IMG/VR virus record: IMGVR_UViG_3300045988_075769
Span: 1-58,438 of that record
Source: a virus
Direction: 5' to 3' (one strand)
Length of the DNA: 58,438 nt
Shown here: positions 4,852 through 20,983 of the stretch, piece after piece
Layout: the number at the start of each line of letters is the position of its first letter
How positions within the stretch are numbered: position 1 is the first letter of the stretch
Translations under genes and position numbers: made by a program
The notes under the pieces: model-generated
The model's database searches: none
What the model saw: the letters and a program-made list of their open reading frames with translations, nothing else
What the model was told of the DNA's origin: nothing

Positions 4852-5733
4852 TCAATTCTCCAAGAAATCCTCTTGATTCAGAACTTGATTTACAATTCGT
4901 TCTGTACATTCTTTAATAACAGTAGATGCTGGGACGTGATCTTCATAAGCTATGTTTTCATATTGTGCTCCTGCATATTCAAAGAACCTTTTGGAAAGTA
5001 TTTCTGCATCCGCACGGCACAACGGCTTTAATTCGTATTGCAACGGAAATCTTCTTGTAAGCGCAGGGTCAATCCTATCAAATCGGTTTGTTGTTCCGAT
5101 AATGATGACATTGTTCGGCAATCTATCCATTTCTTGCATAATCGCAATAACAACACGGTTCATTTCCCCAACGTCATCTTTTTGCCCACGAGCCATTCCG
5201 ACCGCATCTATTTCATCAAAACAAAGAACGCAAGGAACGGTTCTCACATAATCAAAAATTCTTGCAAGGTTAGATTGTGTTTGTCCTAAGTGCGAATCAA
5301 CTAGACTTGAAAATTGAATCCTCAAAAACGGAAGTTTTGCTTTATGTGCGATATACCTAGCCAGCATGGTTTTTCCACATCCGCTTTGCCCATAGAGCAT
5401 CAATGCCGGCAAATAAGGAATGCCCATTTCATTCAATTTTTCAGATGCTCGATAAATGGCAACAGTTTTCTGCGTTATACTTTTTTCTTCGTTCCTAAGA
5501 AGGAATCTTGCTTCCGGAAATTCTTCTGTATCCTCTGCGATCAAAAGATGCTGTAAGTTATATGGCAATTCAATAAATTCTCTTTTGCTTTCCAACTTGC
5601 GAAGCATATTTTCTTTAAACCGCTCATCTTTTTTGGATGATATGGAATTCAAAATGGTTTTAACGGCTTTTTGCGCGTTTCGCATATCTCCATCGCAAAC
5701 AAATCGAATAAGGCATCGTTCACTATCATTCAT
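4852..5733 (-). CDS. AAA+ ATPase (classic clade)
   Basis: Walker A GQSGCGKT, Walker B VLCFDEID, sensor-1 IIGTTN and Arg residues PALTRRF. The start overlaps the upstream RHH gene stop by 8 nt. Confidence 0.85.
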   Translation of the reverse strand: MNDSERCLIRFVCDGDMRNAQKAVKTILNSISSKKDERFKENMLRKLESKREFIELPYNLQHLLIAEDTEEFPEARFLLRNEEKSITQKTVAIYRASEKLNEMGIPYLPALMLYGQSGCGKTMLARYIAHKAKLPFLRIQFSSLVDSHLGQTQSNLARIFDYVRTVPCVLCFDEIDAVGMARGQKDDVGEMNRVVIAIMQEMDRLPNNVIIIGTTNRFDRIDPALTRRFPLQYELKPLCRADAEILSKRFFEYAGAQYENIAYEDHVPASTVIKECTERIVNQVLNQEDFLEN

Positions 5734-6298
5734 CTAAGAAATCCTCCAACTCAATCTTCCCTTCTGCCGCCGCCACTGCCAGAGCATACACGAACTGTCC
5801 AATCGTCATTCCGTGCCGTCTTGCTTCACGGTTGATGTACTTGCGCTCTTCCTCGCTCATAAGGATTGTAATGCGTTTTGAACGCTTTCCGTCACCGCTT
5901 GCAACGCCTTGATGCGATTCCGGCATCGGGATTTTTTTCTTTGTCAAACCAGCTTCGGCTAGTGCGCCGGGAACATCACCTTGTTCGATAAGACGTTGAA
6001 CTTCTTTCGCCTGTTTCAGCTTCTTTGGCTTACTTTCGCTGACTATGGCACGGTTTGGCTGTGTTTCGCTGTCTTTGGCTTGCTTCGGCTTAATACTGCT
6101 TAATTCCGCTTCACTTGGCTGTGCATGGCTGTCTGTGGCTTCACTGGGCTTAATCGGTACTTGTTCGGCATTATTCGGCTTTATTTGGCTTACTTCTTCT
6201 TCCTTTGGCTCACTTCGGCTTAATGTCTGCTCCGAAAAAACAGGCTGGAAATCAAAGCCGCCAAGCAAGCCGGATGTTTTTTTGCTGGTTGACTTCAT
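5726..6298 (-). CDS. RHH protein, candidate ParG/omega-like centromere-binding partner of ParA
   Basis: C-terminal KRITILMSEEERKYINREARRHGMTIGQFVYALAVAAA is RHH-like. The N-terminus is a 10-aa-periodic K/P/S/E-rich tail. Confidence 0.55.
   Translation of the reverse strand: MKSTSKKTSGLLGGFDFQPVFSEQTLSRSEPKEEEVSQIKPNNAEQVPIKPSEATDSHAQPSEAELSSIKPKQAKDSETQPNRAIVSESKPKKLKQAKEVQRLIEQGDVPGALAEAGLTKKKIPMPESHQGVASGDGKRSKRITILMSEEERKYINREARRHGMTIGQFVYALAVAAAEGKIELEDFLDE
6011..6230. repeat. About 21 tandem decamers in strict 10-bp phase (NNNNTT[G/C]GCT)
   Basis: Counted directly. 16 of 22 consecutive 10-bp windows from 6011 (16 of the 20 in 6021-6220) end in GCT, 12 of them in GGCT (6030, 6060, 6080, 6090, 6120, 6130, 6140, 6150, 6180, 6190, 6210, 6220). 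Confidence 0.85.
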
Positions 6299-14901: not shown

Positions 14902-15165
14902 ATGAAAACTTTGAAAGGAATGGCGCTTTCCATGCTTGGTCTGATCGCGGCTATCGCAGCAGTTGGCTGCGGTGATGCGATTCAGGGCTGTCAAACCACA
15001 GCGCAGATGCTTGGCTGGGTAATCGTGTCCTGCGGGTTTCTCGCAACGGCTATCTTGCTGTGTGCGTTGGCAGTTAGCGAGGAGATGGACGAACGCAGCG
15101 AGAAAAAATGCCGGAAAATCAAGCGTGTTGCCCACCACACCAGCGAGTGGAGGGATGCACAATGA
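14902..15165 (+). CDS. Small membrane protein
   Basis: RBS AAGGAGAA. Two TM helices. Confidence 0.55.
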   Translation: MKTLKGMALSMLGLIAAIAAVGCGDAIQGCQTTAQMLGWVIVSCGFLATAILLCALAVSEEMDERSEKKCRKIKRVAHHTSEWRDAQ

Positions 15166-15356
15166 AATGCCCGATGTGCGGTAGCGACAACATTACAACG
15201 GTTGATAGCCGGTCTGACCACGATAGCATCGTTCGCCGCAAGAAGTGCATTTCCTGTAACCATCGGTGGTCTACCATCGAAATCGACAAAGACCAGTGGT
15301 ACAGCGCACTGCAAATCAAAGAGGAACGCAAGAGAGGGAGACCCAAAGATGATTAA
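15162..15356 (+). CDS. NrdR-like zinc-ribbon protein lacking an ATP-cone
   Basis: MKCPMCGSDNITTVDSRSDHDSIVRRKKCISCNHRWSTIE parallels the NrdR N-terminal zinc ribbon. The protein is only 64 aa. Confidence 0.6.
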   Translation: MKCPMCGSDNITTVDSRSDHDSIVRRKKCISCNHRWSTIEIDKDQWYSALQIKEERKRGRPKDD

Positions 15357-15543
15357 CCTTGACAGATTCGGTGGCGTGACAGAACCGGAGGACGGCGTGT
15401 ATTTCCTAACCCGTGAGCAGGAAGCAGAAGCCAAAGAAGCTGACCGGCTGGCAGCGATTGAGGACTTACAGTCTGAGATTGAGGACAGGGAAGCAGAGCT
15501 GAAAGACCTCCGTGCGCAGTTGGCAGACCTGATGGCTGGTTGA
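15349..15543 (+). CDS. Hypothetical acidic coiled-coil protein (64 aa)
   Basis: ATG at 15349 overlaps the upstream gene end. Confidence 0.45.
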   Translation: MINLDRFGGVTEPEDGVYFLTREQEAEAKEADRLAAIEDLQSEIEDREAELKDLRAQLADLMAG

Positions 15544-15612
15544 TTTTGTACAGCCGAGTTAAGCCGAAGTAAGAATAATGAAGCCTAATGAAGCCGAAGA
15601 AAGGAAAGAAAA

Positions 15613-15999
15613 ATGGGCAAATACAAGAAAGAAATCAAGCACTGCGAAAAGTGCAATAAGCCTTTTTCGGTGTTCCCGAACAGCACCGAAACGCTCTGCG
15701 CGAAATGCAAGGAAGCAGTGATTGAAGATACGTTGCGAAAGAACGGTTATGCGCCGAAGCATAGATTTGTGAGAAGCAACATGGATTCTGTTTCAGAGCA
15801 GCATGCTATCGTAGAAGCAGAATTTAAGGCATCGTGCGATTCTAACACGAGCGTTCAGAGAATTTGCCGTGACTGCGGAAAAGCATTCGAAATTTCTCGT
15901 GCAGAGCGCATTTTCTTTGAATCACATAACATGGCATTGCCTAAGCGTTGCCCGGCTTGCCGTAAAGTGAGGAAAGAAGCGAGGAAGGAGAACAACTGA
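15613..15999 (+). CDS. Zinc-ribbon protein (zf-trcl-like C-terminus)
   Basis: CEKCNKPF...CAKC, then CRDCGKAFEISRAERIFFESHNMALPKRCPACR. Confidence 0.55.
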   Translation: MGKYKKEIKHCEKCNKPFSVFPNSTETLCAKCKEAVIEDTLRKNGYAPKHRFVRSNMDSVSEQHAIVEAEFKASCDSNTSVQRICRDCGKAFEISRAERIFFESHNMALPKRCPACRKVRKEARKENN

Positions 16000-16607
16000 T
16001 GGATAACAGCAAAATCCATGAAGCTCTGATGGCTGTTCAGTCAGAGCTGAAAGCCCCCAAAGGGCAGATGAACAAATTTGGCGGATACAAGTACCGCTCG
16101 TGTGAGGACATCCTCGAAGCGGTCAAGCCCATCTTGAAAGCGCATAGCCTTGTGCTGCGGCTTTCCGACAAGCCTGTTATCGTTGATAGCTGGCACTACA
16201 TCGAAGCCACTGCAACGGTTGAATCGCAGGATGGAGCCACCTATACGGTGACTGCATACGCTCGTGAGCCTGAGTTTAAGAAGGGCATGGACGATTCGCA
16301 GATTACCGGCACTGCAAGCAGCTACGCTAGAAAGTACGCCCTGAACGGTCTGTTCTGCATTGACGATACGAAGGACGCTGACACGGACGAGTACCAGAAG
16401 CAGACCACAAGCAGGGCAAGCAAGCCTGCGCAGAAGCAAACAGAATCGGAAACTATCCCCCCATGCGCTTGCTGCGGAAAGCAGTTGCAGCCTATTCAGT
16501 ACAACAACCGCACAGTCACTCCGCTGGAAACTGCAAGAAGCACAAAGAAACGCTTTGGGCGTGTCCTGTGTTGGGACTGTGCCCAGAAACAGCCGAAGGA
16601 GGGCTAA
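15999..16607 (+). CDS. erf: ERF-family single-strand annealing protein
   Basis: YKYRSCEDILEAVKPILKAHSL and TGTASSYARKYALNGLFCIDD match ERF motifs. A C-terminal CxxC...CxxC is also present. Confidence 0.8.
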   Translation: MDNSKIHEALMAVQSELKAPKGQMNKFGGYKYRSCEDILEAVKPILKAHSLVLRLSDKPVIVDSWHYIEATATVESQDGATYTVTAYAREPEFKKGMDDSQITGTASSYARKYALNGLFCIDDTKDADTDEYQKQTTSRASKPAQKQTESETIPPCACCGKQLQPIQYNNRTVTPLETARSTKKRFGRVLCWDCAQKQPKEG

Positions 16608-17068: not shown

Positions 17069-17635
17069 ATGGAGGAACTTTGGAAAGACATTCCGGGATA
17101 TGAGGGGCTTTATCAAGCATCGAATCTTGGAAGAATCAGAAGCGCACCGGGTAAAATAACATCTTCTGCAAGGTATAAAGTCAGAGTTTGGAAAACAAGA
17201 ATTATTAAGCCGAAAACAGAAAGAAGATACAGAGACTCAAAAGGGAACGCAGATGAACGAGTTGAACTTTGGAAAAGCGGCTCTCATAAAACTATGTTGG
17301 TTTCAAGGCTTGTCGCTATGGCTTGGGTTGATGGATACGAACCAAATTTGACAGTAAACCATATTGATGGCAATCCGTCAAACAACATTCCCGAAAATTT
17401 GGAATGGGTGACTATTGGAGAAAACGTAAAGAAGGGCTTCCAAGAAGGCCTTTTTGAAAAGTGCTGTAAAGATGTCGCGCTCATATCTCCAACTGGTGAA
17501 ATTCATTACTTTGGAACATTAAGAGCCGCTTCAAAATTTTTGGGAAAGAATAACGGCTATTTGAACGAACGCCAGAAGCGAAATTACAAGACTGGGATTG
17601 ATTCAAATGGTACGCATTGGCTAATTAGAGCCTGA
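17069..17635 (+). CDS. HNH homing endonuclease (NUMOD4 + HNH_3)
   Basis: WKDIPGYEGLYQASNLGRIRS is the NUMOD4 motif. VNHIDGNPSNNIPENLEWVTIGEN is the HNH motif. Confidence 0.85.
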   Translation: MEELWKDIPGYEGLYQASNLGRIRSAPGKITSSARYKVRVWKTRIIKPKTERRYRDSKGNADERVELWKSGSHKTMLVSRLVAMAWVDGYEPNLTVNHIDGNPSNNIPENLEWVTIGENVKKGFQEGLFEKCCKDVALISPTGEIHYFGTLRAASKFLGKNNGYLNERQKRNYKTGIDSNGTHWLIRA

Positions 17636-17688
17636 CCGCCTACCTTATATAAGAGCTGCGCTATCTGGCTGGACGGGCGTTTGGAAAG

Positions 17689-19599
17689 ATGAAACACTTG
17701 GGCGACATCACAAAGATTCACGGCGACAAGATAGAGCCTGTGGATTGCATCACGTTCGGTAGCCCATGTCAGGACTTGTCCATTGCTGGACGCAGGGCTG
17801 GACTTGCCGGAGAACGCTCCGGGCTATTCATAGAAGCGGTTCGAATCATAAAGGAAATGAGGTCAAGCACAAATGGATTGCATCCAACTTTCGCTATTTG
17901 GGAGAACGTGCCCGGAGCATTCAGTTCCAACGGAGGAGAAGATTTCAGAGCCGTGCTGGAAGAACTTGCCCGCATTGAACAGCCAGACGTTTCAATTCCT
18001 CGACCTTCGGGTAGGGGGGGCAGATGGAGCAAAGCTGGAGCAATCGCCGGAAATGGATGGAGCTTGGCTTGGAGACAGCTCGACGCTCAATATTGGGGAG
18101 TTCCCCAGAGAAGAAAACGTATCGCTCTTGTCGTGGATTTTGCAGGTCAACGCGCCGGAGAAATACTATTTGAGCGAACGAGCCTGTCAAGGCATCCTGA
18201 TTCGCGCATCCCGGCGTGGAAAGAAATTGCCGGACTTACTGCAAACTGCCCTGCTGGAAATGATGGAGTGGTGGGAGCCGGGCGCGGCCGCAAAGGCGAT
18301 GGAAATGCTGATTGCAGAAGAACAGAAACGGATAAGACGGGAGAAGCTGACCGCTCTGAACGAGAGGAAAGAACGGATAAGAGAGAAAGCAGAGAAGCAG
18401 CTGCGTACTCTCTTAAAATCCGCTCTGGCTGTGCCGGGGGCGGAAAGGGCGCACTTGTGCAAACAGAAAAAGTCGGGACGCTATCGACACTCCAAGACCA
18501 GACGATTTTCCAGCTAGTGCAAGCCGGGGAGATAATCCCAATAAACACACAAATCGCTACAAGACACATCTCGATGGGGGAAAAAACAGGTCTTGGAGTT
18601 GGAAAGAATGGAGACCCGTCCTTTACTCTACAGGCACGGCATGAACACGGCGTGTGCTATTGCATTGCGGGAAACATTGTTGACAGAGCCGATACGGCAG
18701 GGGCGAACGGCTTGGGCGCAAAAGAAGAAGTGGGCTATACACTGAACACAATCGACCGTCATGCAGTTGCGTATTCCATAAATCCGTTGTCAAGTAACAG
18801 CATGAAATCGGCAAATCCGTACAGCGGGTTCAATGAAACAGGTGTAAGTAAAACGCTCGACTGCTCTGACGCAAACCCAACGAAGAATCAGGGAGGACTT
18901 GCCATCGTTCAGCCGATTCCGATTCAAGACAAAACAGGAACCCTTTCGCCCGGCGCTCACGCTGGAAGCTACAATGGACAGGATGCTTACAACGATATGC
19001 TGGTAAGGTGCAGAGTTTTTGACGCAAGAGGTAATGGAAATGGAAAGATAGTTCCGACCATTACGGGAGATCACGAAAGCAGAATCACAGACTACACGGC
19101 AATCGTAACAGAACCGGAAGATTGTTTGACACCGTGGGATAATCAAGCTCGGAGGATATATAGCGAGAACGGAACGTTTCCAGCGCTGGCTGCAAGAGAA
19201 AAAGCGGGGCAAAATCAGCAGTCCGTCCTAACGGAAACGGAAATTAGGTGGATAGTCCGCAGACTGACCCCAACGGAATGCGAACGTCTGCAAGGCTACC
19301 CGGACGGCTGGACAGATATCGGAGAGTGGGTAGACACAAAGGGTAAGAAGCACAAGCCGACGGACAGTCCGCGCTATAAAGCGCTTGGAAATTCCATTGC
19401 ACTTCCTCAGTGGTTCTGGATTGCACAGAAGATGAAGCCTTATCTGAGCGAAAATTCCACGCTAGGCAGTCTGTTCGATGGTATAGGCGGCTTTCCGCTT
19501 GTTTGGCAAAAGACTTATGGAAACGGTACGGCACGATGGGCGAGCGAAGTTGATAGCTTCTGCATTGCCGTTACAAAAAGGAGATTCGGCGAAGAATGA
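17689..19599 (+). CDS. C5 cytosine DNA methyltransferase, circularly permuted (IV-X then I-II)
   Basis: Motif order along the ORF: GSPCQDLS (IV), FAIWENVPG (VI), VPQRRKRI (VIII), RRLTPTECERLQGYP (IX), YKALGNSIALP (X), and finally LFDGIGGFP (I) and WASEVD (II) at the C-terminus. Confidence 0.8.
   Translation: MKHLGDITKIHGDKIEPVDCITFGSPCQDLSIAGRRAGLAGERSGLFIEAVRIIKEMRSSTNGLHPTFAIWENVPGAFSSNGGEDFRAVLEELARIEQPDVSIPRPSGRGGRWSKAGAIAGNGWSLAWRQLDAQYWGVPQRRKRIALVVDFAGQRAGEILFERTSLSRHPDSRIPAWKEIAGLTANCPAGNDGVVGAGRGRKGDGNADCRRTETDKTGEADRSEREERTDKRESREAAAYSLKIRSGCAGGGKGALVQTEKVGTLSTLQDQTIFQLVQAGEIIPINTQIATRHISMGEKTGLGVGKNGDPSFTLQARHEHGVCYCIAGNIVDRADTAGANGLGAKEEVGYTLNTIDRHAVAYSINPLSSNSMKSANPYSGFNETGVSKTLDCSDANPTKNQGGLAIVQPIPIQDKTGTLSPGAHAGSYNGQDAYNDMLVRCRVFDARGNGNGKIVPTITGDHESRITDYTAIVTEPEDCLTPWDNQARRIYSENGTFPALAAREKAGQNQQSVLTETEIRWIVRRLTPTECERLQGYPDGWTDIGEWVDTKGKKHKPTDSPRYKALGNSIALPQWFWIAQKMKPYLSENSTLGSLFDGIGGFPLVWQKTYGNGTARWASEVDSFCIAVTKRRFGEE
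17873..18517 (+). CDS. Embedded +1-frame ORF (214 codons) inside the MTase gene; candidate overprinted gene
   Basis: ATG lies 10 nt after GAGG. The translation looks like a real protein (PEKYYLSERACQGILIRASRRGKKLP followed by a K/E/R coiled coil) over the stretch where the MTase frame turns low-complexity. Confidence 0.35.
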   Translation: MDCIQLSLFGRTCPEHSVPTEEKISEPCWKNLPALNSQTFQFLDLRVGGADGAKLEQSPEMDGAWLGDSSTLNIGEFPREENVSLLSWILQVNAPEKYYLSERACQGILIRASRRGKKLPDLLQTALLEMMEWWEPGAAAKAMEMLIAEEQKRIRREKLTALNERKERIREKAEKQLRTLLKSALAVPGAERAHLCKQKKSGRYRHSKTRRFSS

Positions 19600-19811
19600 T
19601 TACCTGTTGTCTCAACTGTACATCACGCTGCACAGCTTGCCACGACACTTGCGAGAAGTACAAGGCAGAGAAGAAAGACTTCGAGGAGCGCAAGGCGTTC
19701 GTGCATGAGCTGAATTATAGCCAAAGCGTGTACCACCGCGATTATGAGGACAAGCACCGGGAACGTGGCAAGAAGCGGTATCTCGGAAGTGAATTTAGAG
19801 GTGAACGATAA
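19596..19811 (+). CDS. Small Cys-rich protein (71 aa)
   Basis: ATGA overlap with the MTase stop. Contains CCLNCTSRCTACHDTC. Confidence 0.55.
   Translation: MITCCLNCTSRCTACHDTCEKYKAEKKDFEERKAFVHELNYSQSVYHRDYEDKHRERGKKRYLGSEFRGER
19790..19809 (+). repeat. 20-bp direct repeat, copy 1 (TGAATTTAGAGGTGAACGAT)
   Basis: A perfect second copy lies at 20085-20104. The two copies bracket gene 19812-20087. Confidence 0.9.
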
Positions 19812-20104: not shown

Positions 20105-20462
20105 GATGATTTGTAAAGCAAACAATCTTGAGGAAAACACGCTTGAAGTTGTGCTTCCTGTTGGTTCGGACAAAATTTTTGAAAATGTACGTCGTGTTTC
20201 TGTAAAGACGTGCGATAGCAATTTGGCGAAATTTTTTCCTGAGGAAGCGTTTGGAGCGGAAGCGTGGATAAGAGTTGAGGATGAAAAGCCGAAATACGAT
20301 GAACCTCTCTTGATTTTGGTTGTAAGACCTAGCGGAGAATGCTTTAGAGACATCGGATGGCTTGACAGCAAAACAAAGGAATGGAACAGGACATACCAAT
20401 TAGCCGACGACACAATTACGCATTGGATGTATCTTCCCGGCTTTCCGGATTTTGAATCATGA
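20103..20462 (+). CDS. DUF551-like protein
   Basis: C-terminal EDEKPKYDEPLLILV...THWMYLPGFP is a DUF551-type pattern. Confidence 0.55.
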   Translation: MMICKANNLEENTLEVVLPVGSDKIFENVRRVSVKTCDSNLAKFFPEEAFGAEAWIRVEDEKPKYDEPLLILVVRPSGECFRDIGWLDSKTKEWNRTYQLADDTITHWMYLPGFPDFES

Positions 20463-20983
20463 ACACTGGCAAGCAGTTTGAAGCAGACTTCAAAGCGTCC
20501 GTGCCAAAGGATGCGTGGTGCTACCGCTTGAAAGACAGCGCCGCCACCTACTACGGCGGCAACGAGAACTTGTCCTTCTCCATCGACAACATTTGTGACT
20601 TCCTTGTGTACCGTTACCCGATGAACCACTTGTTTGAGCTGAAAACCATTGAAACGCCCTCTATCCCTCTGGAAAAGGTGTTCGGCAAGTACGACAAGGA
20701 AAAGTGCAAATATCGCAAGGAAAAGCACATCACGGACATGGTGGAAGCAATGGGGTACAGCGGTCAGACCGCCCATGTGATAGTCAATTACAGGGCGGTC
20801 AACCGCACCTTTGCAATCCCTGCCAGCAAGGTTCTGGCGTTTCGTTACAACGAGAGCCGCAAGAGCATCCATTGGCAGTGGGCAGAGCAAGAGGGGATAG
20901 AGGTCAAAGCAAAAAGGCTGCGTGTCCATTGGCGGTATGACGTGGATGCGCTGTTGAAAAGATTGGAGAAAGAGCATGGATGA
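20459..20983 (+). CDS. PD-(D/E)xK nuclease, RecU-like Holliday-junction resolvase candidate
   Basis: NTGKQFEADF...DNICDFLVYRYPMNHLFELKT gives a D...E-x-K arrangement similar to RecU. Confidence 0.45.
   Translation: MNTGKQFEADFKASVPKDAWCYRLKDSAATYYGGNENLSFSIDNICDFLVYRYPMNHLFELKTIETPSIPLEKVFGKYDKEKCKYRKEKHITDMVEAMGYSGQTAHVIVNYRAVNRTFAIPASKVLAFRYNESRKSIHWQWAEQEGIEVKAKRLRVHWRYDVDALLKRLEKEHG

Follow-up and report, generated by a model that had tools for sequence, protein, structure and literature searches.

A probable natural circularly permuted C5-cytosine DNA methyltransferase, opened between motifs II and III, from a family of gut phages

RESULTS

A phage methyltransferase with motifs I and II at its C-terminus

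We analyzed a 58,438-nucleotide stretch of viral DNA (IMG/VR record IMGVR_UViG_3300045988_075769, positions 1 to 58,438; here, the window) from a gut phage, a Faecalibacterium/Oscillospiraceae-type siphophage. An ATG-started open reading frame (ORF) of 636 codons on the plus strand at 17689..19599 very probably encodes a naturally circularly permuted C5-cytosine DNA methyltransferase (C5-MTase) of 636 amino acids (aa). The conserved motifs run in the order III-IV-VI-VIII-variable region-IX-X-linker-I-II and do not follow the canonical linear order I-II-III-...-X. All the catalytic and cofactor motifs are present: the FxGxGG of motif I, the acidic residue of II, the PCQ cysteine of IV, the ENV of VI, the QxRxR of VIII, motif IX, and the GNS of X. 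The data below show the motif order, a unit-length junction, conservation across relatives, purifying selection, and a confident structure model of the C-terminal tail; methyltransferase activity, target specificity, and the route of origin of the permuted enzyme are inferred. An earlier note on this DNA had described the ORF, its motif strings, and an in-frame TAA at 17650-17652, 12 codons 5' of the ATG, and we located every one of these elements where the note had placed them.

The new N-terminus carries motif III (HLGDITK, residues 3-9, 17695..17715), which corresponds to approximately residue 58 of M.HhaI; a start of the form M[KI]HLGD is found in 79 of 79 relatives. The earlier note had named motif IV as the first motif, which is incorrect, and because motif III rather than IV comes first, the break lies between motifs II and III. 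Motif IV (GSPCQDLS, residues 24-31, 17758..17781) contains the catalytic Cys27. It is followed by motif VI (FAIWENVPG, residues 68-76, 17890..17916), which contains Glu72, and by motif VIII (VPQRRKRI, residues 138-145, 18100..18123), which we placed by alignment to M.HhaI and by family conservation. A long variable region, corresponding to the target-recognition region, occupies residues ~165-516 (18181..19236) and precedes motif IX (RRLTPTECERLQGYP, residues 524-538, 19258..19302) and motif X (YKALGNSIALP, residues 563-573, 19375..19407). The old C-terminus, past the motif X helix, is connected to the old N-terminus by a 9-residue linker (KPYLSENST, 19435..19461). The chain then ends with the relocated motif I (LGSLFDGIGGFPL, residues 592-604, 19462..19500), which forms the loop that binds S-adenosylmethionine (AdoMet), and with the motif II region (ARWASEVDSFCIAVTKRRFGEE, residues 615-636, 19531..19596), which contains the acidic Glu620 and ends at approximately residue 55 of M.HhaI. 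All of these features are on the plus strand.

Profile searches detected the permutation directly. The ORF matched PF00145 with an E value of 1.4e-33 and 117.1 bits (cut-off 22), split over four stretches, and matched TIGR00675 with 105.6 bits (cut-off 100.65). When we de-permuted the ORF in silico by putting the last 55 residues first, the PF00145 match became a single unbroken stretch over profile positions 4-132 (113.6 bits); by itself, the N-terminal part scored 86.3 bits over profile positions 46-132, and the tail scored 17.3 bits over positions 4-43. Using phmmer, we mapped the ORF onto M.HhaI: motifs I-II (query 594-635) correspond to HhaI residues 16-55, motifs III, IV, and VI (query 4-89) to residues 58-136, and motifs IX-X (query 518-579) to residues 266-315. 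Motif VIII (query 128-148) corresponds to residues 149-169 in the M.HhaI comparison. Given this mapping, the protein stops at approximately residue 55 of a normal enzyme and starts at approximately residue 58. In addition, the canonical enzyme of Streptococcus phage Javan108 aligns through its residues 1-48 with the final 50 residues of the ORF product (54% identity, E value 2e-11). The PF00145 scan and the comparison with homologues that have N-terminal motifs I-II had both been proposed in the earlier note, and together with the M.HhaI mapping they bear out its claim that this is a circular permutation with motifs I-II at the C-terminus.

We compared the ends of the ORF with the corresponding junction in canonical sister enzymes. 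In the sisters, the sequence between motifs II and III reads ...VTTKR[ML]P[EQ]V-KH[LY]GD..., and here the tail ends in ...VTKRRFGEE followed by the stop codon, with the protein starting at M-KHLGD. The permutation is therefore unit-length to within one residue, which agrees with the suggestion in the note that the ORF ends where a normal enzyme would go on with MKHLGD.

Conservation, selection, and structure of the C-terminal tail

We aligned 78 sequences of the family (about 50% identity) and found that the catalytic and cofactor motifs are invariant or nearly so. Outside the tail, the invariant residues are P26, C27, and Q28 (motif IV), E72 and V74 (motif VI), R524 and E530 (motif IX), and G567 and N568 (motif X); within the tail, they are S594, L595, F596, D597, G598, G601, F602, and E620. 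Rough estimates of the ratio of nonsynonymous to synonymous divergence (dN/dS) from 56-58 distinct coding sequences (CDS) were 0.09 for the I-II tail as a whole, 0.04 for motif I, and 0.12 for motif II. The other conserved segments (motifs III-IV, VI, VIII, IX, and X) ranged from 0.06 to 0.19, with 0.07 for motif IX and 0.06 for motif X. The 9-residue linker had a dN/dS of 0.48, indicating relaxed constraint.

The same 78-sequence alignment was used as input for AlphaFold2; a structure prediction had been proposed in the earlier note. The predicted local distance difference test score (pLDDT) was about 90 or higher over most of residues 1-160, with a low-scoring loop at 31-40, and over residues 520-636; the strand of motif VI (68-73) was modelled at >90. 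The tail was modelled at 94-98 as strand 592-594 (within motif I), helix 601-610, strand 615-618, and helix 623-633. In this model, the tail is the beta1-alphaA-beta2-alphaB unit of the Rossmann-type fold, and the linker lies between helix 572-585 and strand 592-594. The best PDB matches found with Foldseek, which aligns collinear parts only and in that sense confirms the fold, were M.HhaI, M.MpeI, and M.HaeIII (root mean square deviation 1.6-1.8 Å over about 146 columns). A hidden Markov model (HMM) of the family I-II segment found no second I-II coding sequence in the 58-kb window, so the tail is the sole AdoMet-binding segment available there. On the same result, we rejected a trans-acting I-II fragment encoded elsewhere in the window.

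Distribution and phylogeny of the permuted layout

All of the 79 related IMG/VR loci, which are independent viral contigs, share this layout, down to 40% identity. Across independent collections, proteins recur with a common start (M[KI]HLGDITKI.G) and a common end (...LGSLFDGIGGFPL...WASEIEEFPIAVTK.RF...). We found the layout in >100 near-identical protein clusters of gut metagenomes, in the cultured Faecalibacterium phage isolates FP_Toutatis and Lelie, and in at least 70 species-representative bacterial genomes, nearly all of them from Oscillospiraceae, Ruminococcaceae, or other Clostridia. Intact bacterial copies include those of the cultured Gemmiger gallinarum DSM 109015 and Acutalibacter sp. 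1XD8-33. The enzyme is thus a member of a large family, rather than the rare case that the earlier note had supposed. In the FP_Toutatis genome (L001, 4001-5412), the permuted gene is annotated as two CDS, gp14 and gp15, each labelled "DNA methyltransferase."

The note had also pointed out that the unusual order could reflect an assembly or rearrangement artefact at 17640-17690 or 19440-19600. The motif order itself, and nothing more, speaks for this explanation. Both junctions recur in the 79 independently assembled viral contigs, in cultured phages, and in bacterial isolate genomes, and the gene has a central position in the window, all of which makes an artefact extremely improbable.

We searched exhaustively with HMMER, using one representative per 50%-identity cluster, and classified the best 150 matches by motif position in two independent runs. 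The two classifications yielded 96 and 99 permuted representatives versus 21 and 18 canonical representatives, respectively; some of the unclassified representatives visibly carry the same I-II tail at the C-terminal end. One representative (P0206) was flagged as having motifs I-II at both ends, but we rejected it as a duplication intermediate because it is a differently arranged fragment. We then built a neighbour-joining tree from the shared core (motifs III-VIII plus IX-X). A single split places 96 of the 99 permuted and none of the 18 canonical sequences on one side, which points to essentially one origin inside the canonical phage subfamily. Members of that subfamily have cores up to 74% identical to those of the permuted enzymes.

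A variable poly-G tract and frame breaks

The gene contains a tract of seven G at 18014..18020 on the plus strand, which leaves the window's copy in frame and varies in length among related genomes. Related viral loci have 6-10 G at this site, and roughly a fifth of them are out of frame there. Among copies in bacterial genomes, 28 are intact and 25 are broken (25/53). Nearly all of the bacterial frame breaks are located at runs of G7-G11 or C7-C8; four or five such runs occur in some of the genes. The frame is intact in phage Lelie, as it is in G. gallinarum DSM 109015 and Acutalibacter sp. 1XD8-33, and broken in FP_Toutatis and in Faecalibacterium tardum CLA-AA-H175. Tract variation was recorded at loci L001, L018, L019, L030, L031, L041-L046, L049-L052, L055, L057, L060, and L079, and at L084-L149. 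Across the compared genomes, the gene has what defines a phase-variable gene, namely a homopolymer within the ORF that differs in length between similar genomes and sets the reading frame. The variation looks like phase variation, or else like a hotspot of homopolymer sequencing error. In FP_Toutatis, a 9-G tract shifts the frame, and gp14 consists of the N-terminal part of the methyltransferase fused to a +1-frame ORF (described below); a tract with one G fewer than in the window would produce the same kind of fusion.

Frame breaks of this kind bear on the possibility, raised in the earlier note, that the gene is a decaying tandem pair. In this scenario, a lost stop codon joined the start of a second, downstream methyltransferase, now the I-II tail, to a first copy that no longer has an I-II segment itself, and the product is a dead remnant. 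The layout is what a tandem duplicate in mid-decay would show, and frameshifts occur in many relatives. However, these frameshifts are almost all at G/C homopolymers rather than at random positions, and the unit-length junction has no leftover sequence on either side. The layout has been kept in about 100 clusters at 50% identity and in hundreds of loci. Purifying selection on the tail (dN/dS 0.09) matches in strength that on the catalytic motifs, and sequences about 50% identical share its key residues without exception. Decay is thus very unlikely, and the note's preferred view of a functional gene is supported by family-wide conservation, purifying selection, and the structure model.

An overlapping ORF in the +1 frame

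Independently of the permutation, we observed a +1-frame ORF of 214 aa inside the methyltransferase gene (17873..18517, plus strand). Several canonical relatives, including those of phages NatCom_9291 and Javan108 and the dmt gene of phage P1, keep this ORF open at the corresponding position; in NatCom_9291 and Javan108, its ATG is at the same position as in the window. Counterparts lie at L002 (3185-3574), L083 (2001-2396), and L082 (2300-2719). Over the 48 codons past motif VIII, very distant phages are 48-62% identical in the +1 frame versus 21-42% in the annotated frame, and the +2 frame is interrupted by stops. Within a 30-codon block, the ratio of nonsynonymous to synonymous differences per site (pN/pS) was 0.31 for the +1 frame, compared with 1.26 for the main frame and 1.37 for the +2 frame, and the main-frame pS drops to 0.13-0.19 in the conserved block of the +1 ORF. 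In all 10 genes tested, the +1 ORF exceeds the mean length obtained from synonymous shuffles. These comparisons of reading frames provide good evidence for a conserved overlapping coding sequence, which we regard as a candidate gene.

The +1 product matched no Pfam family, and the ORF in the window had no PHROG match; the NatCom_9291 copy had one weak PHROG match, labelled "DNA methyltransferase." Its structure model, which is based on a shallow alignment and is partly confident, is disordered for 83 residues and then helical in the conserved C-terminal part. At 18270-18420 (main-frame residues ~195-245), the methyltransferase has a low-complexity charged insertion (GAGRGRKGDGNADCRRTETDKTGEADRSEREERTDKRESRE) that many relatives lack. 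Read in the +1 frame, these nucleotides encode a stretch modelled as one long helix (EEQKRIRREKLTALNERKERIREKAEKQLRTLL, pLDDT about 90). The +1 product, and not the methyltransferase, may be what the insertion serves. Our literature search found no report of an overlapping gene in C5-MTase genes.

The stretch upstream of the gene and the surrounding module

The earlier note had read the 12 codons upstream of the ATG (ELRYLAGRAFGK) as a relic of a lost N-terminal I-II segment. Tests with an HMM, with DNA, and with the peptide detected no relic, and we rejected this reading. When we searched six frames of 80 loci with the family I-II HMM (filters off, E ≤ 10), only the C-terminal tails were detected and nothing was detected upstream. 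The similarity between the upstream 53 nt and the tail DNA is no better than that of shuffled sequences (848 of 1,000 shuffles reach the score). At the peptide level, a five-residue match to the tail (RAFGK/RRFGE) is not significant (p about 0.1).

A free-standing homing endonuclease gene with NUMOD4 and HNH_3 domains lies between the gene for a single-stranded DNA-binding protein (SSB) and the methyltransferase gene (17069..17635, plus strand). This gene is optional: it is present at about eight related loci, and the others carry a different insert of similar size or none. At loci without the HNH gene, the SSB gene ends 71-85 nt 5' of the same ATG and is followed by the same methyltransferase N-terminus. 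We therefore rejected the idea that the HNH gene removed the N-terminal I-II segment. Four loci (L012, L037 [5421-6143], L047, and L056) have an insertion of a further HNH gene, distinct from the first, within the last 16 codons of the permuted gene. The methyltransferase there keeps a replacement end brought by the insert (EVDNFCIAITRKRFPDVEES, then stop), and its displaced original end (EEFPMAVTKRRFGEE, then stop) stays fused to the end of the HNH ORF. Homing endonucleases are thus found at both ends of the permuted gene, in different genomes; in a canonical gene, these two ends are equivalent to one place, the II/III junction.

The methyltransferase gene belongs to an early recombination/replication module in which an NrdR-like zinc-ribbon protein, an ERF single-strand annealing protein, SSB, the HNH endonuclease, the methyltransferase, and a RecU-like protein are encoded. 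Neighbours at 15108-16607 and 20459-20983 comprise the NrdR-like zinc ribbon, a treble-clef zinc ribbon, ERF, SSB, and the weakly matching RecU-like resolvase; two DUF551 proteins are also encoded in the module. A small Cys-rich ORF of 71 aa (19596-19811, MITCCLNCTSRCTACHDTCEKYK...) overlaps the methyltransferase stop codon in an ATGA. It is 85-97% identical in most close relatives, where it lies directly 3' of the methyltransferase gene, and it has no Pfam match.

DISCUSSION

Proposed working and origin of the permuted enzyme

In the arrangement that we propose, the chain would begin with strand beta3 (motif III) and continue through the catalytic PCQ loop, the ENV and QxRxR motifs, the long modular target-recognition region, and motifs IX and X. 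Past motif X, the 9-residue linker would lead into the beta1-alphaA-beta2-alphaB unit carrying motifs I and II, which closes the chain and would fold back to complete the Rossmann-type AdoMet-binding sheet. Because the tail would complete the sheet, the three-dimensional enzyme is expected to be ordinary, with chain connectivity alone being different. In C5-MTases, the helix past motif X packs on the catalytic domain beside the N-terminus, as seen in the M.HhaI and M.MpeI structures (PMC5944983); given this proximity, the three-dimensional enzyme would stay as it is if the native ends were joined and the beta2-beta3 surface loop were opened.

Most likely, the enzyme methylates phage DNA (and the DNA of prophage hosts) at several target sequences and thereby protects it from restriction; its biological role is presumably to shield phage DNA from the host's restriction systems. 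The variable region is 350 aa long and differs between relatives by insertions and deletions of whole blocks. By analogy with the multispecific Bacillus phage enzymes of the SPR/phi3T type, these block differences suggest several specificities.

The permuted layout probably arose essentially once, from a canonical phage methyltransferase of the "LGSLFDGSGGFPL..." kind, and would later have diversified widely among phages of gut Clostridia. The likeliest route is that tandem copies were fused in frame and that both ends were then trimmed, as in the model of Jeltsch 1999 (as cited in PMC5944983). The linker (KPYLSENS ahead of TLGSLFDG) has roughly the combined length of a canonical C-terminal end and a canonical N-terminal leader. 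Together, the linker length and the unit-length junction are what fusion followed by trimming predicts. The earlier note had proposed duplication followed by truncation, a candidate route that fits the unit-length junction.

Several observations weigh against the interpretation of the gene as a functional permuted methyltransferase derived by this route. The dN/dS values are rough because synonymous sites are near saturation (pS about 0.65), even though the contrast between the linker and the motifs is clear despite this. The variable region (165-516) was modelled with low confidence (pLDDT <50). Because Foldseek aligns collinear parts, docking of the tail lies outside what its matches test. 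The out-of-frame copies, roughly a fifth of those in viruses and nearly half of those in bacteria, could mean frequent inactivation rather than switching. Finally, none of the 150 representatives is a duplication intermediate with motifs I-II at both ends.

We also considered that the fold is intact but that the protein has a role other than, or additional to, that of a DNA C5-MTase. It could be a low-affinity or regulated enzyme, act on RNA or another substrate, or serve as a DNA-binding protein, or the main output of the gene could be the products of the poly-G tract and the +1 ORF. Speculation that opening the II/III loop could weaken AdoMet binding (PMC5944983) is compatible with this alternative, as are the length-variable G tract and the selected +1 ORF within the gene. 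We consider it unlikely given that the catalytic and cofactor-binding residues are invariant or nearly so, that the closest structures are bona fide DNA C5-MTases, and that the canonical sisters, including the C5 half of P1 Dmt, are annotated as phage DNA methyltransferases. A functional permuted DNA C5-MTase thus remains our preferred reading.

A wider reading joins three elements: the first natural family of its topological type, an expressed +1 gene conserved throughout a broad subfamily of phage C5-MTase genes (in phages of gut Clostridia and of Streptococcus and in P1 dmt), and a slippage switch at the poly-G tract. Slippage would then determine whether the full-length methyltransferase is made or, instead, its N-terminal part fused to the +1 product. 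We put this combination forward tentatively, as a real possibility that falls somewhat short of probable.

Implications

Circular permutation of C5-MTases is a textbook case of the evolution of protein topology. Matched natural pairs of permuted and canonical enzymes, with cores up to 74% identical, could be used to gauge any cost of the rearrangement in AdoMet affinity or folding. The variable G tract, if real, might allow phage methylation in the human gut to be turned on and off, and the embedded +1 ORF, if real, would mean that well-studied genes such as P1 dmt contain a conserved overlapping gene. Annotation that takes domain order into account would prevent the splitting and mislabelling of permuted genes, as seen in the two CDS of FP_Toutatis.

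Comparison with known permuted and canonical C5-MTases

The closest relatives of the family in topology are engineered enzymes. Slaska-Kiss et al. 2018 built 21 permutants of M.MpeI and M.SssI, of which those opened between motifs II and III (cp62M.MpeI and cp58M.SssI) were the most active of all, with cp62M.MpeI being about as active as the wild type (PMC5944983). These constructs, called Type/Class B, and the first group of laboratory-evolved M.HaeIII permutants have the same II/III opening and the same order, III...X-I-II. In the Type B constructs, as in ORF 17689-19599, a direct connection or a short linker leads from the native C-terminus, past the motif X helix, to the native N-terminus, with the new termini lying between motifs II and III. 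The constructs differ from the present enzyme in being laboratory-made, specific for CG or GGCC, and equipped with short variable regions, whereas the family described here is natural and has a 350-aa modular region and its own 9-residue linker. Their activity has been demonstrated experimentally, whereas that of ORF 17689-19599 is predicted.

The natural permutants with motif X before motif I that the 2018 study listed are of the BssHII type (M.Alw26I, M2.Eco31I, M.Esp3I, and M2.BsaI; "Type H"). A search of REBASE by Slaska-Kiss et al. returned 27 natural sequences with X before I, all of them of this type, with the break in the variable region, and Type/Class B permutants resembling cp62M.MpeI were said to be absent from nature (PMC5944983). 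ORF 17689-19599 shares the placement of X before I. In contrast to the BssHII type, its break separates beta2 from beta3 within the Rossmann-type catalytic domain, and motif VIII, the variable region, and motifs IX and X are contiguous, which confirms the impression in the earlier note that the breakpoint is unlike that of M.BssHII. The authors of the 2018 study asked why nature avoids the II/III opening and suggested weaker AdoMet binding as a cost (PMC5944983). We found no report of a natural Type B permuted C5-MTase in the literature that we searched, including papers that cite PMC5944983, in a search that did not cover REBASE. Judged by its motif order, the family has exactly the Type B topology and, so far as this literature search shows, is its first natural case. 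The natural record in that study was limited to the BssHII topology, and a large, conserved, natural family opened between motifs II and III would answer its question: nature does use the Type B topology.

Plant DRM2 de novo methyltransferases also have natural rearranged C5-MTase catalytic domains, but they are eukaryotic and not closely related. In DRM enzymes, motifs VI-X precede motifs I-V, so that the break falls between V and VI. DRM2 chains were among our PDB sequence matches, with motif IV near the DRM2 C-terminal end. Much closer in sequence are the canonical phage C5-MTases of the same subfamily, represented by phage NatCom_9291, Streptococcus phage Javan108, and the C5 part of phage P1 Dmt. 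These enzymes share with the permuted family the I-II sequence (LGSLFDG.GGFPL ... WASEIE.FPI.VT), the long variable region, and the embedded +1 ORF, but unlike ORF 17689-19599, they carry motifs I-II at the N-terminus.

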